64,000 bases of DNA from Minisyncoccota bacterium. GTDB taxonomy: Bacteria > Patescibacteriota > Minisyncoccia > Phycocordibacterales > Phycocordibacteraceae. Where the stretch lies: NCBI GenBank assembly GCA_035548315.1, contig DASZTF010000044.1:31484-95483 (forward strand). The letters are read 5' to 3'. The translations under genes and the position numbers were made by a program. Under the pieces are notes generated by a model that worked only from the letters and a program-made list of their open reading frames with translations, ran no database searches and had not been told where the DNA came from. Below are positions 5,068 to 34,965 of the stretch, one piece after another. Position 1 is the stretch's first letter. Each line of letters starts with the position of its first letter.

Positions 5068-5153
5068 AAAACAAAACACCGCATTCACTCGGGACAGTAC
5101 GTCTTGGCCGAGCGGCCGTGAGCGCTGGCTCGAGGGGATGCGGTGTTTTGTTT
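5068..5153. terminator. Long-range inverted repeat (16-nt arms AAACAAAACACCGCAT / ATGCGGTGTTTTGTTT) between convergent gyrB and the downstream minus-strand gene; probable bidirectional terminator
   Basis: Perfect 16-bp complementary arms, A-run 5' and T-run 3', GC-rich ~54-nt interior that can fold further. Confidence 0.5.
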
Positions 5154-8152: not shown

Positions 8153-8225
8153 TTGTACGCTGTGCCTTAGAGGCATGGCAGGGGCATTTATTTAACCAGT
8201 GCGTTACCAGCATTACTCAACATCT

Positions 8226-10316: not shown

Positions 10317-10327
10317 CTCCACACAAG

Positions 10328-10364
10328 AAAACCGCCGCCTCCTTCGAGGCGGCGGGTTTCTTTT
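10328..10364. terminator. Bidirectional intrinsic terminator between convergent genes
   Basis: aaaccgccgcct-ccttcg-aggcggcgggttt flanked by an A-run and cttttg. Confidence 0.7.
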
Positions 10365-10367
10365 GCC

Positions 10368-16297: not shown

Positions 16298-16663
16298 ATG
16301 TCAATTCGAATGCGCCATACCCGCGGCCACACCAATAACCGCCGCTCCCATCATGCCTTGAAGCGCATGACCATCGTCACGGACAAAGAGTCCGGCAATC
16401 TCCGCCTCCCGCACCGTATCGACGAGGCGACCGGCATGTACCGCGGCAAGCAGATTTTCACCCCGAAGACGAAAGGGTCGAAGACCCTGAGGAGCGGAGC
16501 GACGAAGGGCGTCGAGCCGAAGCTTCCGAAGGAAGACCGCCACGCCGATCACGAGCATATAGAGCAGACGAGTGCCAAGAAGGGAGGCCTCATGCGTCGG
16601 TTCGTGGGCGGCGGACGTCCGCAGGCCCGCTCCGGCATGGGCGGCGGCTCCGGCGGCAAATAA
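16298..16663 (+). CDS. rpmF: 50S ribosomal protein L32 with ~60-aa Lys/Gly-rich C-terminal extension
   Basis: [21 protein letters not shown] ... [21 protein letters not shown] aligns to the bL32 signature (RRSHxAL, LxxxHxI, YRGxxI). Track start is GTG at 16289; the ATG at 16298 lies just after a TACAGT -10. Confidence 0.7.
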
Positions 16664-16685
16664 TTTCTCCACGTGTGATATCCAC

Positions 16686-16716
16686 GGCCCCGCTTCGCGG
16701 GGCCGTTGTGTTTGCT
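16686..16716 (+). terminator. Rho-independent terminator after rpmF
   Basis: ggccccgc-ttc-gcggggcc perfect 8-bp stem followed by gttgtgtttgct. Confidence 0.7.
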
Positions 16717-16736
16717 ATACTCGTACACAGAGTTCC

Positions 16737-17651
16737 ATGGCCAACAGACATCTCGCGCGATCGGTCGTACTCCAAACACTCTTCGAGTGGGATACGACGC
16801 TTGCCGCGCCGGAAGATGCCGGAGCCATGCTCGCACGTAACGTAGAAGAATTCGGTGGCGACTCCACCGACCGACCGTTCATGGATCAACTCCTCTCGGG
16901 CGTCCTTGCGAAAAAGGACGACGTCGACCTTATCATCACCAAAGCGGCTCCCGATTGGCCGCTCGATAAAATCGCGCCGGTTGATCGCAATATTCTACGC
17001 ATCGGCCTTTACGAACTCCTCTTCGCTGATCGCGCACAGGTGCCAGCGAAGGTCGCCATCAACGAAGCCATCGAACTCGCGAAGACCTTCGGCGGGGAAT
17101 CTTCAGGCCGTTTCGTGAACGGTGTCTTGGGTGCGGTCTATAAAGAGATCGGCGAGCCCGGGAAGGACGAGACCGGCAAGAAGAAGCAGCTGCGCCGCGA
17201 AGACCTCCCGGTCGAGCAGCTCGGCGGCGCGGTCGTGTACGCGTACCACGAGGGCCAGTACTACCTCGCACTCGTCCACGACGTGTTCGGTCACTGGACG
17301 CTCTCGAAGGGCGGGCTCGAGGAGGGTGAAGATGCGCCCACAGCGACCGTGCGCGAGATGAAGGACGAGCTCGGACTCGACGTCACTATCATCGAGAAGG
17401 TCGGCGAGAATGAATACGTGGCGAGCCACCCGGAGAAGGGTAAGTACCGCAAGCACGTGACGTACTTTCTCGCCGAATCCGCGTACACTGAAATCAAGCT
17501 TAAGCAGACCGGTGGGCTCGATGACGCGCGCTGGTTCAAGCTGCCCGACATCCTCGACCTCAATTTCTACGAAGACATGCTTCCGATCGTGACAGCCGCG
17601 GTGCAGACGCTCCTCGACCGCGCCCGCGCGAAGCAGCCGCAGCACGCGTGA
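16737..17651 (+). CDS. nusB: NusB antitermination factor fused to a C-terminal Nudix hydrolase domain
   Basis: N-terminal ~135 aa is NusB-like (RHLARSVVLQTLFEWD ... NGVLGAVYKE). A K-rich linker follows, then a Nudix fold with an intact Nudix box GGLEEGEDAPTATVREMKDELGL. Start at MANRH (16737), preceded by TATACT. Confidence 0.8.
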   Translation: MANRHLARSVVLQTLFEWDTTLAAPEDAGAMLARNVEEFGGDSTDRPFMDQLLSGVLAKKDDVDLIITKAAPDWPLDKIAPVDRNILRIGLYELLFADRAQVPAKVAINEAIELAKTFGGESSGRFVNGVLGAVYKEIGEPGKDETGKKKQLRREDLPVEQLGGAVVYAYHEGQYYLALVHDVFGHWTLSKGGLEEGEDAPTATVREMKDELGLDVTIIEKVGENEYVASHPEKGKYRKHVTYFLAESAYTEIKLKQTGGLDDARWFKLPDILDLNFYEDMLPIVTAAVQTLLDRARAKQPQHA

Positions 17652-18624: not shown

Positions 18625-20829
18625 ATGCTTAAACGGCTTGAAATAGCTGGCTTCAAATCCTTTGCGCGCAAGACCGTGCTCGATTTCTCGTCGTCGGTCA
18701 CGGCGATCGTGGGGCCAAACGGCTCGGGTAAAAGCAACGTCGCGGAAGCGTTCCGCTTCGCGCTCGGCGAGCAATCGATGAAGTCGATGCGCGGGAAGCG
18801 CAGCGAGGACCTTATATTCTCGGGCTCCCATTCGGCGAGCCGTGCTAATCGTGCATCAGTCGCGGTCACCTTTGATAATGCCAAGAAGCCCTTCAAGGTC
18901 GATTTCGATGAAGTCACGCTCGAGCGCGCGGTATTCCGCGACGGCGCGTCGGAGTACTCGGTAAATGGTTCCAAGGTCCGCTTGCGCGACACGCAGGAGA
19001 TTCTCGCGAGCGCGAACATCGGTGAGACCGGGCACCACATCATTTCCCAGGGCGAGGCGGATCGCATCCTGCTTGCGAATACCAAGGAGCGCCGCGCGAT
19101 GCTCGAAGACGCACTCGGACTGACCGCGTTTGAATTCAAGAAGGAGGAGAGTAAGCGCAAACTCGAGAAGACCGAGGAGAACATGAAACAGGTGGAGGCG
19201 CTGCGCCGCGAACTCACACCGCACCTTAAATTCCTCACCACGCAGGTGGAGAAACTGGAGCGTGCCGACGAACTGCGTCGGCAGCTTGCGGAGCAGTCAG
19301 CTATTTATTTCGCGACGGAGGAACATTATTTGAGTACGGAGAAAGAAAAAGCGGCGCACGCACGCGCCGTGGCGAGCGAGAAGCTGGCCGCCCTTACCGC
19401 GGAACTGAATCGCTTGGACGATACTACGGCCGACAGCGCGGGCATGAAGAAGGCGCAGGCGGTGCGCGACGCCGAGCGCGACCTCGACCGCTTGGTCGCG
19501 GAGAAGGCTGCGCTTGCGCGCGACATCGGTAAGGCCGAGGGTGCGCTCGAAGCAGCCAAGCAGCGCAGCGCCGCAGCCGCACGCGATCCCTATGTGAAGG
19601 TCTCGCGCGATGAATTCACCATGCTGCGGGATGAGATCGAGAAGCAGGTGGAGCACGCGGGAGAAGTGCCCGACTCGCTCAAGGCAGCACTCCAGGCCAT
19701 CCGGGGGGCCATCCGCGCGTTCTTCGAGCGGTTCGCACTGCCCAAGGACGCGTACCTCGCTGATGAGGAGCAGGCAGTATACAAGCTCGAAGAAGAGCAT
19801 CAAAAACTTGCGGCCAAGGATGCTGCGCTCGCCGAGATCGTCGAGCGCATGCGGCACGAACTCAGTCGCGCGCGCGAAGACGCGCGCGCTCATGAAGAAG
19901 CGGGCCGCGAAGGCAAGAAGGAATTAGTGAAGCTCGCGGACGAGCGCGCGCAAGCCACGGCAGAAGTCGCGCATCAGGGCGACCGCGAGCGAGAACTCGT
20001 CATCCTCACCGGCGAACTTGAGCAGGCACGAGCAGAGGTCGCGGCGCTCATCGGCTCGCTGATGCTCAGCACCGAAGGAAAGCCAGTCATGGGAGAAGAG
20101 CGTGCCGCGCAAGAGGGCAGGAAGCGCGCGATCGAGCGCCTCAAGATCCGTCTTGAAGAATCGGGCGGTACGGGAGAAGAAGTCCGCACGGAATATAAGG
20201 AGGCGACGGAACGTGAAGCATTCCTCGGACGCGAGCTTACCGACCTCGCGCAGTCAGCAGAGGGCCTGCGCACGCTCATCAAGGACCTCGACGACGAGCT
20301 CGCTAAGAACTTTGCAGAAGGGTTGAAGAAGGTGAACGACTCGTTCACAGAATTTTTCGCGCTTATGTTTGGCGGCGGTAGCGCCAAGCTGACCCTTGAA
20401 GAATTTGATGCTGATGAAGAGGAAGATGATCTCGCAGATGACTACGAGCCACGCAAGAAGGATAAAGATGCAAAGCCGGGTATTGAAATTTCAGTAAATC
20501 TTCCCAAGAAGAAAGTGCAGTCCCTCATGCAGCTCTCGGGCGGCGAACGCGCGCTCACCTCGATCGCGCTCATCTTTGCGATGAGCCAGGTAAATCCGCC
20601 CCCGTTCCTCATCCTCGACGAGACCGATGCCGCGCTCGACGAAGCCAACAGCCGCCGCTACGGCGACATGATCGAGAACCTCGCGAAGAAGTCGCAGCTC
20701 ATTGTGATCACCCACAATCGCGAGACCATGAGCCGCGCGGGCATCCTCTACGGCGTCACCATGGGCGCTGACGGCGTCAGTAAGCTCCTCTCGGTAAAGT
20801 TCGACGAAGCCGTCGCCGTCGCGAAATAG
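18625..20829 (+). CDS. smc: SMC-family chromosome-condensation ATPase, short hinge-less form (734 aa)
   Basis: N-terminal MLKRLEIAGFKSF...GPNGSGKSN (Walker A) and a long coiled-coil. C-terminal head carries LSGGERALTSIALIFAM (signature), LILDETDAALD (Walker B) and ITHN (D-loop/H-loop). rnc-smc synteny is conserved. No Gly-rich hinge segment recognisable. Confidence 0.8.
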   Translation: MLKRLEIAGFKSFARKTVLDFSSSVTAIVGPNGSGKSNVAEAFRFALGEQSMKSMRGKRSEDLIFSGSHSASRANRASVAVTFDNAKKPFKVDFDEVTLERAVFRDGASEYSVNGSKVRLRDTQEILASANIGETGHHIISQGEADRILLANTKERRAMLEDALGLTAFEFKKEESKRKLEKTEENMKQVEALRRELTPHLKFLTTQVEKLERADELRRQLAEQSAIYFATEEHYLSTEKEKAAHARAVASEKLAALTAELNRLDDTTADSAGMKKAQAVRDAERDLDRLVAEKAALARDIGKAEGALEAAKQRSAAAARDPYVKVSRDEFTMLRDEIEKQVEHAGEVPDSLKAALQAIRGAIRAFFERFALPKDAYLADEEQAVYKLEEEHQKLAAKDAALAEIVERMRHELSRAREDARAHEEAGREGKKELVKLADERAQATAEVAHQGDRERELVILTGELEQARAEVAALIGSLMLSTEGKPVMGEERAAQEGRKRAIERLKIRLEESGGTGEEVRTEYKEATEREAFLGRELTDLAQSAEGLRTLIKDLDDELAKNFAEGLKKVNDSFTEFFALMFGGGSAKLTLEEFDADEEEDDLADDYEPRKKDKDAKPGIEISVNLPKKKVQSLMQLSGGERALTSIALIFAMSQVNPPPFLILDETDAALDEANSRRYGDMIENLAKKSQLIVITHNRETMSRAGILYGVTMGADGVSKLLSVKFDEAVAVAK

Positions 20830-20833
20830 GGAA

Positions 20834-20861
20834 TTGACAAACAACATATAGGTGCTATTAT
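20834..20861 (+). promoter_or_regulatory. Sigma-70-like promoter TTGACA-16-TGcTATTAT
   Basis: Near-consensus -35 and extended -10 about 30 nt upstream of the ATG at 20892, with GGAGAAAAAC RBS. Confidence 0.55.
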
Positions 20862-20891
20862 TATTCCAGTAACCGCATCTGGAGAAAAACG

Positions 20892-21206
20892 ATGCACCGC
20901 ACCCTGATTGCATTTTCCGTCGCAGCTGCTCTGGCAAGCGCCAGCTCGGCACTGGCCAGTGAGAGAGTCTATGCTGCTCCTGGGCTGGCCATAATAGACG
21001 AATGGTATGTCCTCGCGTGTCACCCGAGAGAGAGACAACTGACTGTTGCCAAGCGCGAAGCGACGTCCGGCTTCCAAAAGAGTTGGAGCGCCGTACTGCC
21101 GATGCATATTGGCGACAAGTTGGCGCTCAACGCGGAGAACTCCCCGCTGCCGCAGGCAACGCTCGTCAACATCAATGGTTGCACTGGGCAGTTCGAAATC
21201 AACTGA
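20892..21206 (+). CDS. Small secreted protein (signal peptide), hypothetical
   Basis: MHRTLIAFSVAAALASASSALA signal peptide. Strong promoter and RBS upstream. Hairpin plus T-run downstream. Confidence 0.5.
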   Translation: MHRTLIAFSVAAALASASSALASERVYAAPGLAIIDEWYVLACHPRERQLTVAKREATSGFQKSWSAVLPMHIGDKLALNAENSPLPQATLVNINGCTGQFEIN

Positions 21207-21220
21207 GCTGTCGATTCTTC

Positions 21221-21256
21221 ACCCCGCCTGGTTCACCCCGGGCGGGCATTCTTTTA
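21221..21256 (+). terminator. Hairpin (cccgcc/ggcggg) + cattctttt after the small secreted protein gene
   Basis: Seen in sequence; the loop is long, so confidence is modest. Confidence 0.35.
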
Positions 21257-21514
21257 GTCAGTGGGTTGTGGATTGGGCACCGGTACCCTGTGTTAGCCTA
21301 CAGGTGTCTGCGACTGTTTTTGGGCGAGCAGACAGCCCTTTACACGTGACGGGAGACAGCAATGAGAATACTCATTTTCCGCCTTTCGGAAGCAGGTGAC
21401 GGAGGCACGACCTTCTAGAGATTCACCCCTCTACGTCGTGCAGATCCCCAACCTCTCTTCTGAAAGGCGGTGATCCAGAATCTCATGCGGTGGGGTCTCT
21501 CGCTGCATGTCTTC

Positions 21515-21552
21515 CGGAAAGGGTCTGACGCAAGTCGGACCCTTTCTTTATC
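21515..21552 (+). promoter_or_regulatory. GNRA-capped hairpin (gaaagggtctgac-GCAA-gtcggaccctttc) followed by tttcttta, 40 nt upstream of gdh; attenuator/terminator-like
   Basis: 12-13 bp stem with one G-U pair, GCAA tetraloop and T-rich 3' flank. Lies at the end of a ~300-nt non-coding stretch. Confidence 0.45.
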
Positions 21553-21592
21553 CCCATGGACGCGTGGCGGGTGAGGAGTATGCTGACTCCAC

Positions 21593-24807: not shown

Positions 24808-24836
24808 TTGACCGCCTAGTACCTATTTGCTATAGT
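24808..24836 (+). promoter_or_regulatory. Promoter TTGACC-17-TATAGT ending 8 nt before the rpsP start codon (leaderless/near-leaderless)
   Basis: Direct reading of the rnr-rpsP divergent spacer. Confidence 0.5.
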
Positions 24837-24850
24837 CCCGAGACATGTTG

Positions 24851-25345
24851 ATGATCCGAATGCAGCGCATTGGCCGCACGAACGACCCGGCTTTTCGTAT
24901 TCTCGTCCTCGAAAAGACGAGCTCGCCTAAGGCCGGTACCTACACCGATCAGCTCGGTACCTATAACCCGAAGACCAAGGCCCTCACGATCGCGGAGGAC
25001 CGCCTCAAGGACTGGATGAGCAAGGGCGCGCAGCTCTCGCCGAGCCTCAAGAACCTCCTCATCGAGAAGAAGGTGCTCGAGGGTGCAAAGGTCCAGGTGA
25101 TCTCGAAGAAGAATCTCGAGAAGAACGTCGCGAAGCGCGCTGAAGAGGCTGCAGCTGCTAAGGCCAAAGAGGAAGAGGCAGTTGCTGCCGCGAAGGCCGC
25201 TGAAGAAGCAGCAAAGACAGAGGCTGAAGCAGCCGCAGCAGCTCCGGCAGAGGAGCCAGCCCCTGAAGCACCTGCTGAAGCGGCTCCCGCTCCTGAACCC
25301 GAGGCAGCGCCAGAAGCTGCACCGACTGAGGAAGTCGCAGCGTAA
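24851..25345 (+). CDS. rpsP: 30S ribosomal protein S16 with ~80-aa Ala/Glu/Lys/Pro-rich C-terminal extension
   Basis: MIRMQRIGRTNDPAFRILVLEKTSSPKAGTYTDQLGTYNP matches the bS16 core. The tail is AKAKEEEAVAAAKAAEEAAKTEAEAAAAAPAEEPAPEAP.... Start taken at the second ATG. Confidence 0.85.
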   Translation: MIRMQRIGRTNDPAFRILVLEKTSSPKAGTYTDQLGTYNPKTKALTIAEDRLKDWMSKGAQLSPSLKNLLIEKKVLEGAKVQVISKKNLEKNVAKRAEEAAAAKAKEEEAVAAAKAAEEAAKTEAEAAAAAPAEEPAPEAPAEAAPAPEPEAAPEAAPTEEVAA

Positions 25346-25426: not shown

Positions 25427-25732
25427 ATGGAACAAGACTACGCATTCCTCGATTTTGTCGTCAAAGCCCTCGTGGATAATCCCGATGCTGTCGTCATTAC
25501 CCGTACCGTCGATGAGATGGGCGTGCTCCTCACGCTCACTGTGCACGCCGACGACATGGGCAAGATCATCGGTAAGGACGGCAATACGGCGAAGTCGTTG
25601 CGCACCCTCCTGCGCGTGGTCGGTATGAAGCACAACGCGCGCGTGAACCTCAAGATCAACGAGCCGCAGGGCGGCAAGCGCGACGTTTCTGGTAAAACCG
25701 TCGACCAAGTGGTTGACGAGGTGGGGATATAG
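25427..25732 (+). CDS. KH-domain RNA-binding protein (YlqC/UPF0109 family)
   Basis: The GKIIGKDGNTAKSLRTLL motif is the KH GxxG loop. Sits in the position of ylqC in the rpsP-ylqC-rimM-trmD cluster. Confidence 0.85.
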   Translation: MEQDYAFLDFVVKALVDNPDAVVITRTVDEMGVLLTLTVHADDMGKIIGKDGNTAKSLRTLLRVVGMKHNARVNLKINEPQGGKRDVSGKTVDQVVDEVGI

Positions 25733-25762
25733 CCCCTTGGCGTACGGTGCTACACTATCCCC

Positions 25763-28700
25763 ATGAAGAAATGGGGGCTGGCGTTTGCCGTGCTCAGTAT
25801 TGTGCTTACCCCACACGTGGCGTCAGCTACCTCCATTGCTGACCTCCAGGCAGAAGTACTCCGCCTCGTCCAACTCGTTCAGTCATTAGAAGCTGAACTC
25901 GCAGCCCGTGGCACTACCACCACATCAAGCTGTCCAGCACTCACGAGAGACCTCACTCTTAATGCCACTGGCCCCGACGTAACAGCGCTCCAATCTTGGC
26001 TCATGAGCCAGGGCTACACCATATCAGCGGGTGCAACGGGATACTTCGGTCCCCAAACCCAGACCGCCCTCAGTGCCTACCAATCAGTACATCTCATCTT
26101 TCCGGCAGTCGGTTATCTTGGTCCCCTGACTCGTTCTTCCATTGGTACGGTCTGCACTCAAACTACTACCACTACCTCCACAACAACCACTATCTCAGCA
26201 GGCGGTGGCGGGGGCAGCCGCAATAATGGCGGAGGCGGAGGCGGCGGAGGAGGAGGAGGCGGCGGAGGTGGGGGAGGTGGTGACACCACCGCGCCAACGG
26301 TTTCAATGACCGCGCCTTCGGACGGGAGTACGGTTACCGGCGCTTCAGTTGCGGTTTCTGCTACTGCGTCTGACGATACTGCCGTTATAGGGGTTCAGTT
26401 CAAGCTCGATGGCTCTTCACTCGGTTCGGAAGACACGTCCGATCCCTATGTTCTCAGTTGGGATAGCACCGGCGTTTCTGACGGTTCTCACACGCTTACA
26501 GCGGTAGCTCGCGACGCTGCCGGCAACACCACTACTGCAACTTCAGTAACCGTGACCGTGGACAATGCAGGACCTGTACTTTCGGCTATAGCATCTACGA
26601 CGGACACCACGGTTGCTACGACTACATGGACGACCGACGAATCTTCGGATTCAAAGGTCGTATACGGTACAACCAGTTCGTACGGCACGACAGTTTTCAA
26701 TGCGTCACGAGTAACTAGTCATGAGCTAGTGCTATCAGGCCTTGCATCGAATACCACTTATCATTTTGCGGTGGTGTCGGCGGATGCGAGCGGTAATACG
26801 TCAACGTCAAGCGACAAGACATTCACCACCCAGGCAGGATCGCAAACAGTCGTTTATATCACTTCTGGCTCTACGTGGACAGTTCCCGCCGACTGGAACA
26901 GCTCAAACAACACCATAGAAGTAATAGGCGGCGGAGCAGGCGCTGCGGGCTACGCGAGTGGTAATGCGCCGGTTGGCGGTGGCGGTGGCGCGTACTCAAA
27001 AATTGTGAACACGAACCTTACACCAAGCGCGACGATTGGCATCCACATCGGCGTCGGCGGCGTTGCAAGCACGTCTGGCGGAGATACCTATCTGTGCAAT
27101 GCGACGAGCAACTGCGGTTCGCTGCTTGGTTCCGCGGTCATTGTAGGAGCGCAGGGCGGCCAGCGCGGAGTCGCAACGGGCACACCTTCGGGAGGGCAGG
27201 GCGGAGCCGCGTCGGCTGGAATCGGCACCACAAAATATTCTGGCGGGAACGGCGGCATCCCGCAGAGCGGCACCGTTATTTCTGGCGTCGGCGGCGGAGG
27301 TGCCGCAGGGCCAAACGGAAATGGTGCTGCGGGAGGCGCAACTACCGGGTCGAGCAATTTCACGTGGGGTGGTTCTGGTGGAGGCGGTTCTGGTGGAGGC
27401 ACTGCAGGAGCAAACGCCACAAGTACGGCGGGCGTGGGCGCAAACGGGGGCGATAATTCAAACGGTGTGGGCCATGGTGTTGGTGCGGTTAATGCAAGCG
27501 CGGGTGGGAATGGCACGGGAGGAACCGCAGGCGGTGGTGGTGGGGCGGGAGGGAATCCCGGGTTCAGCACGGACAATGCAGGTTCGGGTGGCGCAGGCGG
27601 CGCAGGCACGGAATGGGATGCAACGCACGGCGCAGGCGGCGGTGGCGGCGGTTCAGGCGCCTGCCAAGTCGGCGCGACTGTGGGTACGGGAGGAAATGGT
27701 GGACTGTATGGCGGTGGCGGTGGCGGTGGTTGCGGAACCGCAGGCGTTGGAGCACAAGGTGTCATCGTGGTCACGTATGGCGGGTCGTCTGATACCACGG
27801 CTCCAGTCATTTCATCTATCTCGTCCGGCACGCCCAGCTCCTCCGGCGCTACCATAACCTGGACGACCAATGAGAACGCGACTTCGCAAGTCGAATACGG
27901 TCTTACTTCTTCCTACACCGCTACGACCACCCTCGATTCAACGCTCACCACCAGCCATTCGGTGACGTTGTCTGGGCTTTCCTCGGGGACGACGTATCAC
28001 TATCGCGTGCGGTCAAGCGATGCGTCGGGAAATCTCGCCACCTCGTCCGATCAAACGTTCACGACGGCGTCTGGACTCGATGACGGGCTTTCCGGTGCGC
28101 CGAGCGCAACCATCCAGCACCCAACCCTCCTCGATAGCTATACGAAGAAACCAGATTGGAACGTTGCCGGCGTAGATTATGCGGTCGGTATCCCAAGCGC
28201 CGTTACGCTTGCCGACTGGACCACGTATTCGCATAGCGGCTGCACGGTCGATAGCGTCACTAACCATTGGATTCGTTGCGACAATCAAACCGGACTTGTC
28301 TTCGACGGTCTCGACTTTACGTTGCACGGCGGGGCAACGCTCTATCTCGTCAATGATACAAACACCACGGTGCAGAATTCAAAATTTGGCGTACCACACT
28401 CGCCGAACTCCTATTCGATTCAGATGACCGGCACTTCCGAGGACATGACTATGAAATACAACTACTTTGACACTGGCGGAACCGCGTCGGCGATCCGAGC
28501 TCACTGCGGCACCATCGTGTTTGAATACAATTACGTCATCCATCAGCAGCAGCAAGTAATCCAGGTTGGCGCTAACACCGGAGAATCGTGCAACGCGGCC
28601 CTCACGTATAAATACAATTTCATCGACGATGCGAATATCGCATCTGGTTCGCACATGAATTACCAGCAGCTTCAGCTGAATACGCTCACGCTAGACGATG

Positions 28701-29032
28701 AGTTCAATACTACCTATCAGACGTCGCTCGGCGGAGCGGAAGGATTCCAGTATTACTGCGTAGGCACGTGCACGCTGCCGTCGCCTATCTTTGCGTATAA
28801 CACTATGATCGCACTCACAAACGGCGGCACGCGCACTATGTCGTACCTTGCTCATGGCAGTAGCGTTGACTCAAATGGGCACACGACAGCTACGGGTTCG
28901 CCTACAGGCCACGACAACTACTTTGACATCACGGGAGCCGTCGGAGCGCTCTACCCAGCAAGTTTCAACGGGTGGACGCTTTCAAACAACTACAACATGG
29001 TAACGGGAGCCGCGTTCTCAAACAATCCATGA
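25763..29032 (+). CDS. Large secreted multidomain protein: signal peptide, PG_binding_1-like domain, poly-Gly linker, Ig-like domain, Fn3-like domain, ~300-aa glycine-rich (GGxGG) domain, second Fn3-like domain, C-terminal parallel beta-helix-like domain
   Basis: Signal peptide MKKWGLAFAVLSIVLTPHVASA. The PG-binding-like segment is ATGPDVTALQSWLMSQGYTISAGATGYFGPQTQTALSAYQ. The Ig-like segment TTAPTVSMTAPSDGSTVTG...VQFKLDGSSLG...HTLTAVARDAAGN follows. Two Fn3-like stretches are present (TWTTDE..SKVVYG...YHFAVVSADASGN and TWTTNENATSQVEYG...YHYRVRSSDASGN). The Gly-rich block begins TWTVPADWNSSNNTIEVIGGGAGAAG. The C-terminus carries repeated NYFD/NYV/YKYNF beta-helix-like rungs. Confidence 0.8.
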   Translation: MKKWGLAFAVLSIVLTPHVASATSIADLQAEVLRLVQLVQSLEAELAARGTTTTSSCPALTRDLTLNATGPDVTALQSWLMSQGYTISAGATGYFGPQTQTALSAYQSVHLIFPAVGYLGPLTRSSIGTVCTQTTTTTSTTTTISAGGGGGSRNNGGGGGGGGGGGGGGGGGGDTTAPTVSMTAPSDGSTVTGASVAVSATASDDTAVIGVQFKLDGSSLGSEDTSDPYVLSWDSTGVSDGSHTLTAVARDAAGNTTTATSVTVTVDNAGPVLSAIASTTDTTVATTTWTTDESSDSKVVYGTTSSYGTTVFNASRVTSHELVLSGLASNTTYHFAVVSADASGNTSTSSDKTFTTQAGSQTVVYITSGSTWTVPADWNSSNNTIEVIGGGAGAAGYASGNAPVGGGGGAYSKIVNTNLTPSATIGIHIGVGGVASTSGGDTYLCNATSNCGSLLGSAVIVGAQGGQRGVATGTPSGGQGGAASAGIGTTKYSGGNGGIPQSGTVISGVGGGGAAGPNGNGAAGGATTGSSNFTWGGSGGGGSGGGTAGANATSTAGVGANGGDNSNGVGHGVGAVNASAGGNGTGGTAGGGGGAGGNPGFSTDNAGSGGAGGAGTEWDATHGAGGGGGGSGACQVGATVGTGGNGGLYGGGGGGGCGTAGVGAQGVIVVTYGGSSDTTAPVISSISSGTPSSSGATITWTTNENATSQVEYGLTSSYTATTTLDSTLTTSHSVTLSGLSSGTTYHYRVRSSDASGNLATSSDQTFTTASGLDDGLSGAPSATIQHPTLLDSYTKKPDWNVAGVDYAVGIPSAVTLADWTTYSHSGCTVDSVTNHWIRCDNQTGLVFDGLDFTLHGGATLYLVNDTNTTVQNSKFGVPHSPNSYSIQMTGTSEDMTMKYNYFDTGGTASAIRAHCGTIVFEYNYVIHQQQQVIQVGANTGESCNAALTYKYNFIDDANIASGSHMNYQQLQLNTLTLDDEFNTTYQTSLGGAEGFQYYCVGTCTLPSPIFAYNTMIALTNGGTRTMSYLAHGSSVDSNGHTTATGSPTGHDNYFDITGAVGALYPASFNGWTLSNNYNMVTGAAFSNNP

Positions 29033-29054
29033 GAAGCGCTACGCGGATGGTAGT

Positions 29055-32000
29055 ATGAAAAGCATGATGCGCCGACGAAGTGTCATAGTTGCCATAACGA
29101 CGTTGGTCGGTCTTTTTTCACTGCAGCCCTTTCTGGCATCGGCGGCGACGTATACCCGAACGCTTGCAGTTGGCTCAAGTGGTTCCGACGTCGCTGCACT
29201 CCAGACATTCCTTGAGTCCAAGGGGTTTTACACATACCCTTCAATCACTGGCTATTTTGGAGCGGTGACTGAATCGGCACTCAAGGCATTCCAATCCTCG
29301 GTCGGGCTTGAGCCGGTGGGAGAGGTGGGGCCAAAAACGCAAGCAATTCTGAACGGCTCAACCTATACAGAGTCGACCGGAGCCCCATCAAACCTCCCCG
29401 CCTCTTTCACCCGCGACCTAGATGCAGGCACGTCAGGCAGCGACGTCACGGCGCTCCAGAGATGGCTCATTGCTCAGGGGTACACCATTCCTGCAGGAGC
29501 AACCGGATACTACGGTTCTCAAACCAAGGCGGCCGTGGCAGCATACCAGGCAGCGCACGGAATCACGCCTCCGGCGGGACGCTTCGGTCCTGCAACCCGC
29601 GCAAGCATATCGCTTGGCATGGCTGCGGGCACGACCGCGCCGCCCGACCAGATCGCTGTTGGACCAGACACCTACCTTGTTCCCGGAGTGCACCTGTCTG
29701 GAGGCACTCCCCGGCATCCTGAAACCCATACCGGAGGCACGAGCGACACCACGCCGCCAGTTCGCTCAGGCGGCGCTCCCTCAGGCACCCTTGCACTCAA
29801 CACCACAAGCACCACCATCTCACTTGATACCGACGAGTCTGCAACCTGCGCACATGCGACATCCCCGGGCACAGCGTACGGCTCCATGACCTCGTTCGAC
29901 ACCACCGGCGGCACCACGCACTCCTCCACGGTCTCGGGACTCACTAACGGCGGCAGTTATGTGTACTACGTCAAATGCGAAGATGCCGCCGGCAATATCA
30001 ACGCCGACGACTACACCATTTCATTCACCGTTGCCGCGGACACTACGTCGCCGTCGGTGACTCTCGATGCTCCCGCAAACAACGCAACTGTCTCAGGATC
30101 CGTCGCGCTGTCGGCTACTGCAAGCGATGACGTCTCTGTATCAGGCGTCCAGTTCAAACTCGACACCAACACCCTCATTGGGGCAGAGGACACGTCCTCT
30201 CCGTACACGGGCACGTGGGACTCGACGGGGGTCGCTGACGGGTCGCACACACTCGTGGCTGTGGCGCGCGACGGAAGCGGGAACTACGCTACGTCGAGCG
30301 TCGCTACCGTGACCGTCGACAACACCGCTCCTGTGCTCTCCTCCATCTCTTCTGGAACACCGGGCGCTTCAAGCGCGACGATCACGTGGAGTACGGATGA
30401 GGGTGCGTCGTCAACCGTGAACTACGGCCTCACGAGCAGCTATGGCACTGCCTCAACTAGCGACGCGCTTACAACCTCGCACTCGATCACTGTGACGGGA
30501 TTATCAGAAGGTACCACCTATCATTTCCAAGTGGCGTCTGCTGATTCGCAGGGTAATGTCGCAACCTCAAGCGACCAGACGTTCACTACCGGGTCAAGCT
30601 ACGCTCCTCTCGGTCTCACCTTTCTTCCATATAACGGTCTTGGTACGAACAGCGCCCTTGGCGTCACCAACAGCACTGCGCTCACGTACTCATTCTGGCT
30701 CATGGGAACATATAACAACGCGAACCCGACAACGATGGTGGGAACAGAAACATGGGGAGACCCCGGTACTTTCTGTGAGGTCACGGGCGGGACGGCTCCT
30801 GGCATCTGCAACTCTGTTGACACCACAAGTGGCCGGTTCCAGCTCAACTTCAATGACAGTACAGGTACCGTAAACGCAAGCAATGCCGTTAAGTTCATAG
30901 GGCAAGCGGGATCGAATGGTACGTGGCACCACTATCTCGTTAGCTTTGACACACATACGCAGAATTCAGCGCTTTACATAGATGGCGTCGACTCAGGAGT
31001 CCATGCGAACCCCATTCCGGCGGATTTGCTTCCGGATCTGAACAATTCTCACGGATTCCATTTAGGGGGTAAAACAACGGCCCAGCCTGCAGTTTCCCTC
31101 CAATACCAGGCTGAAATAGTTGCGGCTGAAACCAGCATTGTATGTACGGGCGCAGGCACGCCTACTACGATGAATGGTATTAGCGTAACCTGTAGCGCAG
31201 CCAACACCATACCGCCGGAAATACTCAGCAAGTTCATAGCCGATGGAAAGCCACTCGACCTCGGATCGTCATGTCAAAATCCGTTTGGCGGCCGTTCTTC
31301 CGAGGTTTGTGTGCGGGGCAGCAATACTTCTAATTCTGGTACGGGTGGCGCTCTCAGTCCACAGGTGTTCTCCACGGCTTCTTATGGTGGAGTGTATGCG
31401 GCTCCGTATGGGCCTGCAGGCATCCCCGCACATCAAGCAACTATGAAGTGGCTTCAGGCAAAAAACGGCGCCACGGTTACAAGCAATAGCATGACGACCA
31501 ACGCTGCATCGAACCCCATTTCAGTCGGCGATCTAATCGTGATTGTGGCGGGTATAAGCAATAGCTCCGGTAATACAAATTACGCTATGACCTGTCCGTC
31601 TGGGTTTAGCCAGATCGGTCCGGTGAACGACACCTTTGAGAGTGTTAACAGCGAGGCCTGCTACAAAATCCTTACCGGTGGTGATACGAGCGGTGCCTAT
31701 ACAATTACTTGGAATAGCGGCGGCGCTGCACGAACTCATGATTGGGTTATGGCCGATTACGGCAACGTCGCATCTGTGGATCAGACAGGATCTCTCTATA
31801 ACGGTGCTACCGTCACCACCTCGCATAAAACTGCTTCCGGTCTCACGACAACTTCGGCCAACGAGACAGTTGTTTCGGCCTGGGTGGATTGGAATGCAGC
31901 GGTCAATACGCCGTTCACTCCTCCTGGCACAGGGACGCTCCGCTACCGGCTGTCTGACGTCGGGTCTCCGTTGCAGATGATGCTCGTGGATGAATACTCA

Positions 32001-32090
32001 GTTGCAAACGGTAGCAATCCGCAGCGCACCATGACGACCGGGTCCGCAGTTACCTCAGCGGGCTTTACCCTCACGCTCGTCCCAAACTAA
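29055..32090 (+). CDS. Large secreted multidomain protein: signal peptide, two PG_binding_1-like domains, Ig-like, Fn3-like, LamG/ConA-like lectin domain, Cys-rich linker, unassigned ~250-aa C-terminal domain
   Basis: Signal peptide MKSMMRRRSVIVAITTLVGLFSLQPFLASA. Two PG-binding-like blocks are present (SGSDVAALQTFLESKGFY... and SGSDVTALQRWLIAQGYTIPAGATGYYGSQTKAAVAAYQ). Ig-like and Fn3-like segments parallel those of the upstream paralogue. The LamG-like signature is WHHYLVSFDTHTQNSALYIDGV. The protein ends ...GFTLTLVPN. Confidence 0.8.
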   Translation: MKSMMRRRSVIVAITTLVGLFSLQPFLASAATYTRTLAVGSSGSDVAALQTFLESKGFYTYPSITGYFGAVTESALKAFQSSVGLEPVGEVGPKTQAILNGSTYTESTGAPSNLPASFTRDLDAGTSGSDVTALQRWLIAQGYTIPAGATGYYGSQTKAAVAAYQAAHGITPPAGRFGPATRASISLGMAAGTTAPPDQIAVGPDTYLVPGVHLSGGTPRHPETHTGGTSDTTPPVRSGGAPSGTLALNTTSTTISLDTDESATCAHATSPGTAYGSMTSFDTTGGTTHSSTVSGLTNGGSYVYYVKCEDAAGNINADDYTISFTVAADTTSPSVTLDAPANNATVSGSVALSATASDDVSVSGVQFKLDTNTLIGAEDTSSPYTGTWDSTGVADGSHTLVAVARDGSGNYATSSVATVTVDNTAPVLSSISSGTPGASSATITWSTDEGASSTVNYGLTSSYGTASTSDALTTSHSITVTGLSEGTTYHFQVASADSQGNVATSSDQTFTTGSSYAPLGLTFLPYNGLGTNSALGVTNSTALTYSFWLMGTYNNANPTTMVGTETWGDPGTFCEVTGGTAPGICNSVDTTSGRFQLNFNDSTGTVNASNAVKFIGQAGSNGTWHHYLVSFDTHTQNSALYIDGVDSGVHANPIPADLLPDLNNSHGFHLGGKTTAQPAVSLQYQAEIVAAETSIVCTGAGTPTTMNGISVTCSAANTIPPEILSKFIADGKPLDLGSSCQNPFGGRSSEVCVRGSNTSNSGTGGALSPQVFSTASYGGVYAAPYGPAGIPAHQATMKWLQAKNGATVTSNSMTTNAASNPISVGDLIVIVAGISNSSGNTNYAMTCPSGFSQIGPVNDTFESVNSEACYKILTGGDTSGAYTITWNSGGAARTHDWVMADYGNVASVDQTGSLYNGATVTTSHKTASGLTTTSANETVVSAWVDWNAAVNTPFTPPGTGTLRYRLSDVGSPLQMMLVDEYSVANGSNPQRTMTTGSAVTSAGFTLTLVPN

Positions 32091-32162
32091 CTTGATCGCC
32101 TCGGGTTATCCCCACCCGGTAACTCGTCTTTTGAGAGACCCGGCAGGGTAGACTGTGGGCAT

Positions 32163-33800
32163 ATGCATATAAGACGCTTCGCATTCGGCATTCCCGTGCT
32201 TGTGCTCGGGCTTTTCTTTACTCTAAGTCCTGCAGCGCACGCGACGTATAAGCCAGCGGGTATTGAGTTCTTGCCGTTCATGGGCTTCGGTACTGGCAGC
32301 GCTACACCGCTTGGCGTCACCAACACCAAAACGCTCACGTATTCGTTCTGGCTCATGGGTACTGCTGACGAGGATGCTCATTACTCGCTTCAAGGCAACC
32401 AGTTCTTGAGCGATCCGAGTAGTGATTGCGAGGTTACGTCGGGACACCCATCCCCGGGGCTGTGTGGATCAGTTGATGATCCATATGGCCGTTTCCAAAT
32501 GAGCTTTAATGACTCGACCGGAACGGTGTCGGGAACAGACGACATCAAATTCCAAGCACAAGCAGGCAGCAATGCCGTGTGGCATCACTATCTCGTGAGC
32601 ATGGACAGTGCGAACCAGGTTGGTGCGCTCTATATCGACGGTTCGCTCTACACCGCGCGCGGGAATCCGCTCATATCTGCGAATGCCATTCCAGACCTCA
32701 ACAACGCCAATGGATTCCATATCCCGGGTTCTGGTCGGTTGATACAATACGAAGCAGACATTGTCGCAGCTGAAACAAGTGTGGTGTGTACGGGCACCGG
32801 TACGCCAGCATCGATGAACGGCATCGCCGTGACGTGTGCGGCACCGAACACCATCCCGCCCGAAATCGTTTCCAAATTCATCAATGGTTCTGGTAAACCG
32901 GTTGACCTCGGCACCGGCTGCGCCAATCCCTTTGGGGGACGGCAGTCAGAGGTATGTGTCGCTGGCAGCACGATCGGGAATACAGGGAGCGGACACTCGA
33001 TGGCAAGCGAGTTGTGGGGTCTAAGCGGTCTTGGTGGCGCGGGCACTCCGGATTACGGCGGGGTATTCACCGCGCCTTTTGGCCCGTGGGGCATTCCCGA
33101 TCATCAGGCCACGATGCGGTGGGTTCAAGAACAGAATCCTGCGGATGTAGTAACTTCAAATGGTTTCCCGGGAGCGTTAAACAAGGACTACATGACGACG
33201 TACGCCGCTTCTAATCCCATCGCGGTCGGAGATCTTATCGTGATTCTGGGGGGTATAAGTTCGAACTATACTATTAACGACGCACACATGATCTGCCCAA
33301 GTGGCTTCACGACCGTCGGACCGGTTGTGGATTCGGGCTATCCGGCGGGAGAAACAAACAGCATACTCTGCTATAAGTTTGCGACTTCCGCGGACGCGAG
33401 CGGCACGGGCGCATACAACATTTACTGGGATATCGGCAAGGCTGACCGCATGCACGACTGGCTCATGGCTGATTACACAAACGTAGCATCGGTCGATAAG
33501 AGTGGCAGCAACTACAATAGAAATGTTACCTCCCACCAGACTGCTTCTGGTCTCACCACTACATCAGGGAACGAGACGGTGGTGTCGGCGTGGGCGAACT
33601 GGAATGCGGCGGTCAATCAGTTCATCGAGCCGAGCACCGGTACACTCCGATTCCGTCTTCCTGACAATATTGCTTCCCCGATGCAGCTCATGCTGGTGGA
33701 TGAATATGGGGTCAGCAAAGGCAGCAATCCGCAGCGCACGATGACCACGGCATCTGCCGACTCGTCCGCAGGGTACACACTCACGCTCGTCCCGAACTAG
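32163..33800 (+). CDS. Secreted protein paralogous to the C-terminal half of the preceding gene (LamG-like + Cys-rich linker + same unassigned C-terminal domain)
   Basis: Signal peptide MHIRRFAFGIPVLVLGLFFTLSPAAHA. Collinear similarity to residues ~515-1011 of the upstream protein (TYSFWLMGT, WHHYLVS.D, ALYIDG, ADY.NVASVD, NETVVSAW, SNPQRTMTT, TLTLVPN). Confidence 0.8.
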   Translation: MHIRRFAFGIPVLVLGLFFTLSPAAHATYKPAGIEFLPFMGFGTGSATPLGVTNTKTLTYSFWLMGTADEDAHYSLQGNQFLSDPSSDCEVTSGHPSPGLCGSVDDPYGRFQMSFNDSTGTVSGTDDIKFQAQAGSNAVWHHYLVSMDSANQVGALYIDGSLYTARGNPLISANAIPDLNNANGFHIPGSGRLIQYEADIVAAETSVVCTGTGTPASMNGIAVTCAAPNTIPPEIVSKFINGSGKPVDLGTGCANPFGGRQSEVCVAGSTIGNTGSGHSMASELWGLSGLGGAGTPDYGGVFTAPFGPWGIPDHQATMRWVQEQNPADVVTSNGFPGALNKDYMTTYAASNPIAVGDLIVILGGISSNYTINDAHMICPSGFTTVGPVVDSGYPAGETNSILCYKFATSADASGTGAYNIYWDIGKADRMHDWLMADYTNVASVDKSGSNYNRNVTSHQTASGLTTTSGNETVVSAWANWNAAVNQFIEPSTGTLRFRLPDNIASPMQLMLVDEYGVSKGSNPQRTMTTASADSSAGYTLTLVPN

Positions 33801-33821: not shown

Positions 33822-33858
33822 AGAGTGACGAGATGGTGAAATTCCATCTCGTCACTCT
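33822..33858 (+). promoter_or_regulatory. Perfect 15-bp hairpin (agagtgacgagATGg / ccatctcgtcactct, 7-nt loop) enclosing the trmD start codon
   Basis: Direct reading; the ATG at 33833-33835 lies inside the 5' arm. Confidence 0.6.
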
Positions 33859-34486
33859 CTTTAAAGAAGCCTGCGAGCCGTATCTCTCGGCGTCTATTTT
33901 GGGTCGCGCACGCGAGAAGAAGCTCATCTCGGTAGACTACTCGAATCCGCGCGACTTTGTCGATAACAAATGGGGCAAAGTCGACGAACGCCCCTACGGC
34001 GGCGGTCCTGGTATGGTGATGCAAGCAATGCCGGTGGTGAAAGCGACTAAGAAAGCGCTTGGCAAGAAGAAGGGCAAGAAGGTAATTGTATGGTTTACGC
34101 CCGGCGCAAGGCAGTTTGATAATAAAGAAGCCGACAAGCTCGCGAAGTATGACGACATCGTGCTTGTCTGTGGCCGCTATGAGGGCATCGACGAGCGCGC
34201 ACTCACTATTTTGAAGAAAGTCGCGCCGGTGAAAGTCTACGCAGTGGGTGACGCCGTCTACACCGGCGGGGAAGTGCCCGCGATGGCGATGATCGACGCG
34301 ATCGCCCGCCGCATCCCGGGCGTGCTCGGCAAGTTCGACTCCGTAGAAGAAAATCGCGTGGCAAGCCGCGCGGTCTACACGCGCCCCGAGACTATTACGT
34401 ACAAAAAGAAGAACTACCGCGTCCCCAAAGTCCTGCAGACCGGCCATCACGCCAATATCGACGCCTGGAAGAGTAAGAAACAGTAG
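33833..34486 (+). CDS. trmD: tRNA (guanine37-N1)-methyltransferase
   Basis: SPOUT-fold motifs: ERPYGGGPGMVM, LVCGRYEGIDER and a C-terminal GGEVPAMAMIDAIARRIPGVLG. Confidence 0.9.
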   Translation: MVKFHLVTLFKEACEPYLSASILGRAREKKLISVDYSNPRDFVDNKWGKVDERPYGGGPGMVMQAMPVVKATKKALGKKKGKKVIVWFTPGARQFDNKEADKLAKYDDIVLVCGRYEGIDERALTILKKVAPVKVYAVGDAVYTGGEVPAMAMIDAIARRIPGVLGKFDSVEENRVASRAVYTRPETITYKKKNYRVPKVLQTGHHANIDAWKSKKQ

Positions 34487-34548
34487 ATACTTGCATAAAG
34501 TAGCGAATTGTTGTATTGTTTTATCCTGTTCATTTGATGGAGGTGGCT

Positions 34549-34902
34549 ATGCCACAGAACTGGGTCGCTCGTGACCCGAAGATGATTCCTGACGACCTGT
34601 TGGTCAGGCTGCTTGATGCGCTTCAGGAGGTGGAGTCCCAAGCGCTCGGAACTCGGAATTATTCGATCAGGAAGGATGACGTGCTGGTCGACGTCCATAA
34701 TTTCGGTAGATTCGACCGGCATAAGCGTGATTTGCAGATCACGATTCTGGCTCACCCTGATTCGGCTCGAAAGGAAAATCTGGACGAACGCAATGACAAA
34801 ATTGTCCGGGCGCTTCAGCCTTTGATGCCACACGGCACCACCGGCTTCATCTGGATCCATATCGGCACGGACTCATCTCTCAAGGTCTTTGCGGGTAAGT
34901 AA
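34549..34902 (+). CDS. Hypothetical protein
   Basis: GGAGGTG RBS 5 nt upstream of the ATG at 34549. GC content and codon usage lower than neighbours. Hairpin plus ttttgtt follows. Sits where rplS would be expected. Confidence 0.4.
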   Translation: MPQNWVARDPKMIPDDLLVRLLDALQEVESQALGTRNYSIRKDDVLVDVHNFGRFDRHKRDLQITILAHPDSARKENLDERNDKIVRALQPLMPHGTTGFIWIHIGTDSSLKVFAGK

Positions 34903-34924: not shown

Positions 34925-34965
34925 GGGCGGTCCTTCACAGGGCCGCCTTTTGTTATGTCCCCACA
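34925..34965 (+). terminator. GC hairpin + ttttgtt after hypothetical gene
   Basis: gggcggtccttcacagggccgcc followed by ttttgtt. Confidence 0.45.

Follow-up and report, generated by a model that had tools for sequence, protein, structure and literature searches.

What do three secreted proteins, encoded one after the other between a KH-domain gene and trmD, do for a bacterium of the Patescibacteria, and how did their genes come to lie there? The question is raised by a 64-kb stretch of contig DASZTF010000044.1, analysed here as a whole and called the window. The three open reading frames (ORFs), named P1, P2 and P3, were taken from the ORF list; they are co-oriented on the + strand and lie exactly where a first-pass annotation of this DNA had placed them, with lengths of 1089, 1011 and 545 aa. 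Its word "giant" is too strong for proteins of about 1000 aa. The organism belongs to the Parcubacteria/Paceibacterota: between its TrmD and the TrmD proteins of UBA6241, several Paceibacterota metagenome-assembled genomes (MAGs) and one Adlerbacteria MAG, identity is 64-74%, and the P3 protein is labelled Candidatus Paceibacterota at NCBI. The arrangement is identical in the independent Logan assembly SRR12170511, so it is not an assembly chimera peculiar to one record. We lean, with some reserve, towards the view that P1-P3 are wall-anchored, stalked and glycan-recognising secreted adhesins. Recognition of a surface is their best-supported function; from the sequences we infer anchoring to the cell's own wall, binding of glycans and, one step further, a role in recognising a host and attaching to it.

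The domain content was determined by profile searches against Pfam and NCBIfam, with the Pfam gathering score (GA) as threshold. P1 consists, in this order, of a signal peptide, a helix, PG_binding_1, a Thr/Gly linker, Big_7, fn3, a TNF-like/glycine-rich domain, a second fn3 and a putative beta-helix. P2 has a signal peptide, two copies of PG_binding_1, an Ig/fn3-like module, Big_7, fn3, LamG, a Cys-rich module and a domain resembling phage minor tail proteins, and P3 consists of a signal peptide followed by the last three of these. All three signal peptides are of the Sec type, with a basic n-region, a hydrophobic h-core and AxA-type cleavage motifs (ASA/AHA), which bears out the earlier description as secreted, multi-domain, adhesin-like proteins; no further transmembrane segment was found beyond residue 40 in any of them. 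In P1 the signal peptide is followed by an amphipathic helix (aa 23-50), predicted by reading the sequence. From the module list proposed at first pass, PG_binding_1 (PF01471), Big_7, fn3 and LamG were recovered. Big_7 scored 68.4 and 66.6 bits (GA 24.1) and fn3 27.7 and 26.5 bits (GA 25), with Pur_ac_phosph_N at 48 and 34 bits; there are two such fn3/Pur_ac_phosph_N modules in P1 and one in P2, which has a weaker third Ig/fn3-like module as well. Each protein contains 8-12 Cys, and invariant Cys occur in the family. A sortase-anchored (LPXTG) adhesin was considered and rejected, since no LPXTG motif is present and the C-termini of P1, P2 and P3 read ...AAFSNNP, ...TLTLVPN and ...TLTLVPN. The cell-wall-directed activity suggested earlier was not borne out either: Pfam and NCBIfam gave no catalytic cell-wall-hydrolase domain in P1-P3, and the NCBIfam SleB/PG-hydrolase matches that might have argued for a cell-wall hydrolase were confined to the PG_binding_1 part.

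The distal part of P1 leads to a phage receptor-binding tip. Its glycine-rich domain has 301 homologs, many with PF21722 (Gly_rich_2). This profile was matched by 16 of 20 aligned homologs (best E 3.8e-11), and P0099, with PF21722 at 29.9 bits, is 42% identical to the P1 domain over 264 aa. The family profile matched the tail fibre of cyanophage Pam3 (7yfw/7ypx) with an E-value of 7.7e-8, in an alignment that spans the domain and covers an N-terminal beta-strand motif (VP.D...N.I.VIGGGG) and a C-terminal motif (G.QGIIV.Y) flanking the glycine-rich motifs. In Pam3 gp24, the TNF-like domain and the glycine-rich one together are the distal tip that recognises the host receptor, and it has been likened to the gp38 adhesin tip of phage S16 (PMC9608196). 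Judged by this alignment, the P1 domain is homologous to the receptor-binding tip of gp24. Both proteins have a TNF-like and a glycine-rich domain in distal position (PDB 7YPX/7YFW). P1, however, begins with a Sec signal peptide, followed by PG_binding_1 as anchor and by an Ig/fn3 stalk, in the position that a baseplate-docking helix occupies in gp24; its glycine-rich domain is ~310 aa long compared with ~200 aa, and neither a gp25-type chaperone gene nor another phage gene lies nearby. Since the docking helix is missing and there are no phage genes in the block formed by P1-P3 or in the window, P1 would have a tail-fibre tip without being a tail fibre.

Other members of the glycine-rich family lie in a phage-like contig with terminase and portal genes, or are fused or adjacent to LamG proteins. 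Our search of the literature on PF21722/Gly_rich_2 found nothing relevant. In a different Paceibacterota MAG (DASZSF010000005), a complete type IV pilus cluster (L092, 1-11398), with PilM/N/O, two T2SSE ATPases, PilC, three N_methyl pilins and a prepilin peptidase, ends with the gene of P0100, a 465-aa protein of the Gly_rich_2 family. A further homolog, P0134, carries the annotation pseudopilin. From these gene contexts, the phage-type glycine-rich tip may also act as a pilus-associated adhesin in bacteria of the candidate phyla radiation (CPR). Type IV pili are reportedly the demonstrated attachment device in Saccharibacteria.

The C-terminal 315 aa of P1 belong to a family of 77 mostly standalone proteins, in which 16 of 27 aligned members matched Beta_helix (PF13229) with a best E of 7e-7. 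Two of the standalone homologs were examined in their genomic context, one of them in Bradyrhizobium diazoefficiens. Both lie in loci with Wzy, GT2, GT4 and methyl- or acetyltransferase genes, typical in content of exopolysaccharide (EPS) or O-antigen loci.

P3 is a paralog of P2 residues 514-1011 (57% identity) without the anchor and the stalk. As P1 and P2 have a Big_7-fn3 cassette in common as well, the block would thus have grown by duplication and domain shuffling. The distal cassette common to P2 and P3 starts with a Laminin_G_3/ConA-like lectin domain, recognised by a match above GA and by its jelly-roll fold, and continues with a Cys-rich module that recurs between LamG domains in other proteins. 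The ~250-aa domain at its end had been left unassigned, with structure prediction and a fold search proposed as the way forward. Foldseek against BFVD gave 79 matches at E<=1e-3, the best at 4e-10, with TM-scores of 0.65-0.79. They were mostly "minor tail proteins" of Mycobacterium and Gordonia phages, and included Rhizobium, Sinorhizobium and uncultured Caudovirales proteins. The predicted structure thus matches a fold of the phage minor-tail-protein type. Although the fold is common to both, sequence identity to these actinobacteriophage proteins is 11-18%, with predicted structures on both sides of the comparison, and here, unlike in the phage proteins, the domain follows LamG and a Cys-rich connector in a secreted cellular protein. 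For most of these minor tail proteins we know of no measured function.

The P3-type family, with LamG, Cys-rich connector and minor-tail-like domain, comprises ~67 clusters at E<=1e-30 in 1.8 billion representatives. Some of its members lie in EPS-type loci (Wzy/GT2/GT4/acetyltransferase). A full-length homolog of P3, P0007 (44% identical), was found in temperate-phage contigs of 38-48 kb (L086-L088, 10001-11593), directly after tail, tail-fibre and J-like genes and before a GDSL-lipase/GH19 lysis region and an integrase gene. Its N-terminus is signal-peptide-like (MLRRIVFCALAAIGLTAYSGEASA). In a second viral contig the module lies inside an 804-aa ORF. PHROGs gave no match for P3 or P0007, and in P1 and P2 only the PG_binding_1 parts matched (endolysin families). 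In a "Rhizomicrobium" MAG (L082/L083), a P3-family gene (10001-11578) and a relative of the P1 beta-helix (20331-21578) lie 9 kb apart in a locus with UDP-glucose dehydrogenase, an epimerase, GT2 enzymes, Acetyltransf_6 and a STAND/NACHT ATPase; the two families therefore co-occur outside CPR too.

The contexts of the homologs, that is EPS loci, a phage tail module and a pilus operon, point to recognition of surface polysaccharides. This reading is strengthened because both domains that the first-pass annotation had left without a name are modules of the phage receptor-binding type. Its suggestion of cell-surface attachment, drawn from the architecture, accordingly holds as far as surface recognition goes, and attachment to a host would be a step beyond it. 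In the mechanism that we propose, P1 and P2 would leave the cell through Sec, their N-terminal PG_binding_1 modules would fix them to its own peptidoglycan, and the Big_7/fn3 stalks would extend them outward. Distally, P1 would present a TNF-like/glycine-rich tip of the type seen in Pam3 gp24 and, after it, a right-handed beta-helix; the distal end of P2 would consist of a lectin-type LamG jelly-roll, a disulfide-rich connector and a minor-tail-type beta-sandwich, and P3 would correspond to this P2 cassette in freely secreted form. The ligand may be a surface polysaccharide (EPS, capsule or O-antigen-like) of another bacterium, and by binding it the Paceibacterota cell would be able to recognise its host or keep hold of it. 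Cutting or modification of the host polymer by the beta-helix is a further possibility.

Several observations weigh against this proposal. The P1 C-terminus itself scored 20.8 bits with Beta_helix, below the GA of 25.9, so this module of the earlier list stays sub-threshold in P1 and is assigned transitively via homologs. The P1 glycine-rich domain likewise gave no direct hmmscan match to Gly_rich_2 and owes its assignment to its homologs. Neither this domain nor P3 had a tblastn match in 50,697 cultured-phage records. The two structure models of P3, with pLDDT values of 70 and 73 from 12-sequence alignments, are of moderate confidence. P0007 could be a secreted lysogenic-conversion (moron) cargo and not a virion fibre, PG_binding_1 could bind the wall of the partner rather than the cell's own, and the episymbiotic lifestyle is an assumption made from the phylum only.

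A second explanation, which overlaps with the adhesin reading and which we consider unlikely yet worth serious attention, is that the main role of P1-P3 is enzymatic, as depolymerase, lyase or epimerase acting on polysaccharides, whether secreted or tethered to the wall. EPS or capsule would then be broken down or altered by the beta-helix of P1, and possibly by LamG plus the C-terminal cassette in P2 and P3, so that nutrients are scavenged or a host glycan layer is breached, and the other modules would be carbohydrate-binding accessories. Pfam and NCBIfam scans gave no glycoside-hydrolase, lyase or esterase family, and neither the P3-family nor the beta-helix-family profile had a match among PDB sequences. 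Phage tailspikes with beta-helices, on the other hand, are often depolymerases, and enzymes that process polymers are typical of EPS/O-antigen loci, in which the standalone beta-helix homologs and the P3 homologs are found. Invariant residues were found in both families: four spaced Asn and an Asn ladder, with Asp and His, in the beta-helix family, and His, Glu, Arg and Cys in the P3 family. The conserved Cys, however, suit disulfides better than catalysis, and LamG and minor-tail-like folds are mostly binding modules.

To place the block among its relatives, the window proteins, together with E. coli RimM and L19 as probes, were mapped onto 80 trmD loci by tblastn. About 35 Patescibacteria loci have the same backbone of RNase R (opposite strand), rpsP, the KH gene, trmD, a variable slot of 0.2-8 kb and rpoB. 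In none of them is KH separated from trmD by a gene resembling P1, P2 or P3; the gap measures at most ~60 bp in the seven closest relatives, too short to hold a gene. In a more distant locus (L030, 4948-10001), five unrelated genes lie between KH and trmD. Compared with every relative available, the block is an insertion specific to this genome. The insertion into a conserved operon that had been proposed at first pass is upheld in this respect, but not as the splitting of a tight operon: in relatives, the KH/trmD junction bears terminator-like hairpins (L002, L005) or a promoter-like TATACT (L007), so it is already a transcription-unit boundary in some of them and a permissive landing site.

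The first-pass annotation had also noted that rimM and rplS are missing beside the block. No tblastn match to either was found in the window or in the 20-kb loci of the relatives (L002-L037), and the same probes found both genes in a deltaproteobacterial control locus (L038). The absence itself is thus real, and since all ~35 Patescibacteria relatives lack both genes as well as the block, it is a clade trait unconnected to the insertion. A displacement of rimM by the insertion was ruled out, because no relative has rimM there. With the E. coli-type rpsP-rimM-trmD-rplS operon this locus shares the common orientation and close spacing of rpsP, a KH gene and trmD; unlike in that operon, rimM and rplS are missing, here and in all Patescibacteria relatives examined, and trmD is followed by the variable slot and then rpoB, with a boundary at KH/trmD in some relatives.

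The trmD-rpoB slot holds different accessory genes in each relative, assorted envelope proteins among them. In the present genome it holds the hypothetical gene hyp128, already described as low in GC (0.52, compared with 0.586 for the window). In one relative (L014, 7394-13933) a 2179-aa secreted Big/fn3/PG-binding protein follows trmD, and in two others (L025, L026) accessory regions of 7-8 kb precede rpoB. In Paceibacterota, insertions have hit the rpsP-KH-trmD-rpoB neighbourhood repeatedly, which makes it a hotspot.

This comparison bears on a third explanation, namely that P1-P3 serve the cell's own envelope, as structural fibres, as proteins associated with the surface layer or in processing the cell's own glycans, with no recognition of a partner. 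We regard it as improbable. A block absent from all relatives is hardly a core envelope function, no EPS biosynthesis genes adjoin the block in the window, and its modules are those that phages use on foreign surfaces. These points have to be set against the PG_binding_1 anchors, the homologs in EPS loci of free-living bacteria, which presumably act on the producer's own polymer, and the envelope proteins in the trmD-rpoB neighbourhood of relatives.

The composition of the block sets it apart from the surrounding genome. GC content at third codon positions (GC3) is 0.57-0.61, compared with 0.72-0.79 in RNase R, KH, trmD, rpoB and rpoC. In tetranucleotide usage the block also stands furthest from the remainder of the window (peak distance 0.285, baseline ~0.12), and an unusual amino-acid composition adds to this signal. 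The P2 distal cassette is 66-71% identical to homologs outside CPR and 60% to P3, and none of 200 bootstraps placed the C-terminal part of P2 and P3 as exclusive sisters. For comparison, TrmD is only ~40% identical to proteobacterial TrmD. A homolog, P0003, lies in contigs of 44-132 kb binned as Rhizomicrobium (GC 0.645). The unusual GC3 and tetranucleotide values and, more tellingly, the phylogeny indicate a foreign origin, and a transfer of modules across phyla is well supported by these comparisons. As to its direction, we infer that the modules were acquired horizontally from a pool common to phages and proteobacterial EPS loci. They would then have been duplicated and shuffled, and would have landed at the permissive KH/trmD boundary, to be expressed from leaderless-type promoters of their own.

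Neither an integrase or transposase nor boundary direct repeats, att-like repeats or an adjacent tRNA was found at the block, which consists of three ORFs only, without a terminase, capsid or other tail gene. A decaying or domesticated prophage tail-fibre remnant, or phage cargo (for example for receptor masking or superinfection exclusion), would account for the phage-type modules, the atypical composition and the position of P0007 near lysis and integrase genes in a temperate-phage contig, but it is highly improbable in view of this gene inventory, of three intact ORFs, of P2/P3 differences concentrated at third codon positions (23 of 33), which argue for purifying selection, and of signal peptides and PG anchors, which are features of cells and not of virions. 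The paralogous 3' ends of P2 and P3 are the only long repeat pair, and they were considered as a target of a diversity-generating retroelement. This was rejected because the mismatches are not A-specific (7 and 8 of 33) and lie mainly at third positions; no reverse transcriptase was noticed among the window ORFs, not every one of which was scanned.

A bolder scenario, to us a rather unlikely one, is that the CPR bacterium copied its host-recognition modules from the EPS locus of its own host (LamG plus the C-terminal cassette, at 66-71% identity, with the beta-helix relative in the same "Rhizomicrobium" locus) and from phages infecting such hosts (the gp24-type tip, and the domain of the minor-tail type). 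The closest homologs belong to Rhizomicrobium-like Alphaproteobacteria, and their taxonomy would then point to the host of this Paceibacterota lineage, and the sharing of receptor modules between phages and episymbionts would be a general route to CPR host range.

The last question concerns the expression of the block. Of the 42 gene starts in the window, 15 have a TAnnnT hexamer whose end lies 5-9 nt upstream of the start codon, compared with 3.1% of random positions, and Shine-Dalgarno-like motifs are almost absent from these starts. This pattern suggests that leaderless mRNAs are the main mode of initiation in this Paceibacterota genome. The TACACT box pointed out earlier at the P1 start is real (25751-25756, preceded by TGc), but co-transcription with the ribosomal-protein genes does not follow from it: with this pattern so frequent, a -10 box directly before the ATG implies a leaderless promoter of P1 itself. 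P1, P3 and trmD each have a -10-like element before the start and P2 has none; the TAGACT hexamer of P3 ends, by our count, 8 nt upstream of the ATG. The likely transcription units, as read from these signals, are P1-P2, P3 and trmD-hyp128, the last ending at the hairpin at 34925-34948. The block would probably be driven by its own leaderless-type promoters and not by the ribosomal-protein promoter; read-through from rpsP is possible. The region from -30 to +45 around the trmD start has a predicted folding energy of -34.1 kcal/mol (z -4.5) and contains a perfect inverted repeat (Table 1). This hairpin is absent from 16 relatives and was found only in this genome. Its downstream arm is conserved coding sequence, and its upstream arm, at the insertion junction, is an inverted copy of the first trmD codons. 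The hairpin might keep trmD from being translated on read-through transcripts, act as an insulator or terminator for P3 transcription, or have been left behind by the insertion as a scar.

Table 1. Genes, protein modules and putative expression signals in and around the P1-P3 block (window coordinates)
Feature	Position	Strand	Remarks
Promoter-like site upstream of rpsP	24808..24836	+	TTGACC-17-TATAGT with TG; -10 ends 8 nt before rpsP ATG
rpsP (S16)	24845..25345	+	left flank of backbone; ~75-aa Ala/Glu/Pro-rich C-terminal tail
KH-domain gene (KhpA-like)	25427..25732	+	PF13083, 73 bits; 3' end is left insertion boundary
Extended -10-like TGcTACACT	25748..25756	+	ends 6 nt before P1 ATG; putative leaderless promoter of P1-P2
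P1	25763..29032	+	1089 aa, secreted
P1 signal peptide	25763..25828	+	MKKWGLAFAVLSIVLTPHVASA
P1 PG_binding_1	25934..26146	+	Pfam core aa 69-110; 34.6 bits (GA 23)
P1 Big_7 + first fn3 cassette	26294..26833	+	59% identical to P2 cassette
P1 glycine-rich domain	26846..27778	+	aa ~362-672; Gly_rich_2 (PF21722) family, via homologs
P1 second fn3	27818..28066	+	Pfam
P1 beta-helix-like domain	28085..29029	+	aa ~775-1089; right-handed, putative
P2	29055..32090	+	1011 aa, secreted
P2 tandem PG_binding_1	29178..29600	+	104.9 bits over two copies
P2 stalk: Ig/fn3-like, Big_7, fn3	29757..30590	+	Pfam
P2 LamG/ConA-like jelly-roll	30612..31154	+	Laminin_G_3 above GA
P2 Cys-rich module	31155..31334	+	~45-60 aa; CxxANTIPPE...C...PFG...C
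P2 C-terminal beta-sandwich	31377..32087	+	phage minor-tail-protein-like, predicted
Weak terminator-like hairpin	32102-32126	+	upstream of P3
TAGACT -10-like hexamer	32139..32144	+	putative own leaderless promoter of P3
P3	32163..33800	+	545 aa, secreted, without wall anchor
P3 minor-tail-protein-like domain	33048-33797	+	aa 296-545
Perfect 15-bp inverted repeat, 7-nt loop	33822..33858	+	AGAGTGACGAGATGG / CCATCTCGTCACTCT; encloses trmD ATG and TAGAGT -10-like hexamer
trmD	33833..34486	+	TIGR00088, 203 bits; 5' end is right insertion boundary
Lower-GC hypothetical gene (hyp128)	34516..34902	+	clade's variable trmD-rpoB slot; strong terminator-like hairpin 34925-34948 downstream

Some further features of the window are recorded here. 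The S16 protein has 166 aa in total, and its Ala/Glu/Pro-rich C-terminal extension is of low complexity. In most relatives the match to S16 is restricted to the first ~82-95 residues, and in a few (L008, L025, L028, L029, L039) the alignment reaches residues ~110-160. ARAGORN called a 98-nt "tRNA-???" with a 2-nt anticodon at 5117-5214, and Rfam at gathering thresholds found no tRNA and no other RNA family in the whole window. Either the call is a false positive, or this is an unusual tRNA, for example with an intron, such as has been reported from Patescibacteria (PMC13011429). Two consecutive large ORFs, at 6833-8098 (421 aa) and 8199-10316 (705 aa), had no Pfam match at E<=1e-5 and sit among housekeeping genes (gyrB, aminoacyl-tRNA synthetase genes and dnaE). 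The ORF at 16572-17651 (359 aa) combines NusB (aa 62-191) with a NUDIX hydrolase domain (aa 238-339), which appears from the domain matches to be an unusual fusion.

To our knowledge, little is understood of how Patescibacteria other than the Saccharibacteria locate and hold on to their hosts, and for most of them no host has been identified. The block offers concrete and testable candidates for host recognition in Paceibacterota, the nearest relatives of whose distal modules lie in alphaproteobacterial polysaccharide loci and one phage tail module. A specificity of binding, once measured, could allow hosts of uncultured CPR bacteria to be predicted from sequence. The structure predictions would provide the first fold-level assignment for an uncharacterised family whose C-terminal domain has no Pfam coverage, and Gly_rich_2 gains a link both to a tail-fibre tip of known structure and to the type IV pilus operon of another Paceibacterota. 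Our literature search on CPR proteins combining LamG, PG-binding and fn3 modules found nothing relevant. The module types are known, and we have not found their arrangement described, with PG_binding_1 anchors, a gp24-type tip together with a beta-helix, and LamG together with a minor-tail-like domain. The finding is not categorically surprising, large adhesion-domain surface proteins having been reported as a CPR theme (PMC8080830).

Two known systems invite comparison. Bdellovibrio binds prey glycans with phage-tail-fibre-like mosaic adhesive trimer (MAT) adhesins, which have a conserved ~130-aa N-terminal beta-rich domain after the signal peptide, form beta-prism trimers and in many cases end in a C-terminal S74 protease (PMC10769870). 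P1-P3 have no detectable sequence homology to the MATs of Bdellovibrio bacteriovorus: in P1 and P2 the signal peptide is followed by PG_binding_1, and Pfam scans gave no Peptidase_S74 or other MAT-type domain, which rules out membership in the MAT superfamily. The large secreted proteins of Vampirococcus lugosii have fibronectin, PKD and other domains, a set unlike that of P1-P3, measure 1392-4163 aa and are predicted to be membrane-localised, and neither PG_binding_1 anchoring nor phage tip modules are reported for them in the accessible part of their description (PMC8080830). What they have in common with P1-P3 is a large secreted format with adhesion-type domains, a proposed role in host recognition and attachment, and a reduced genome shaped by horizontal gene transfer (PMC8080830).

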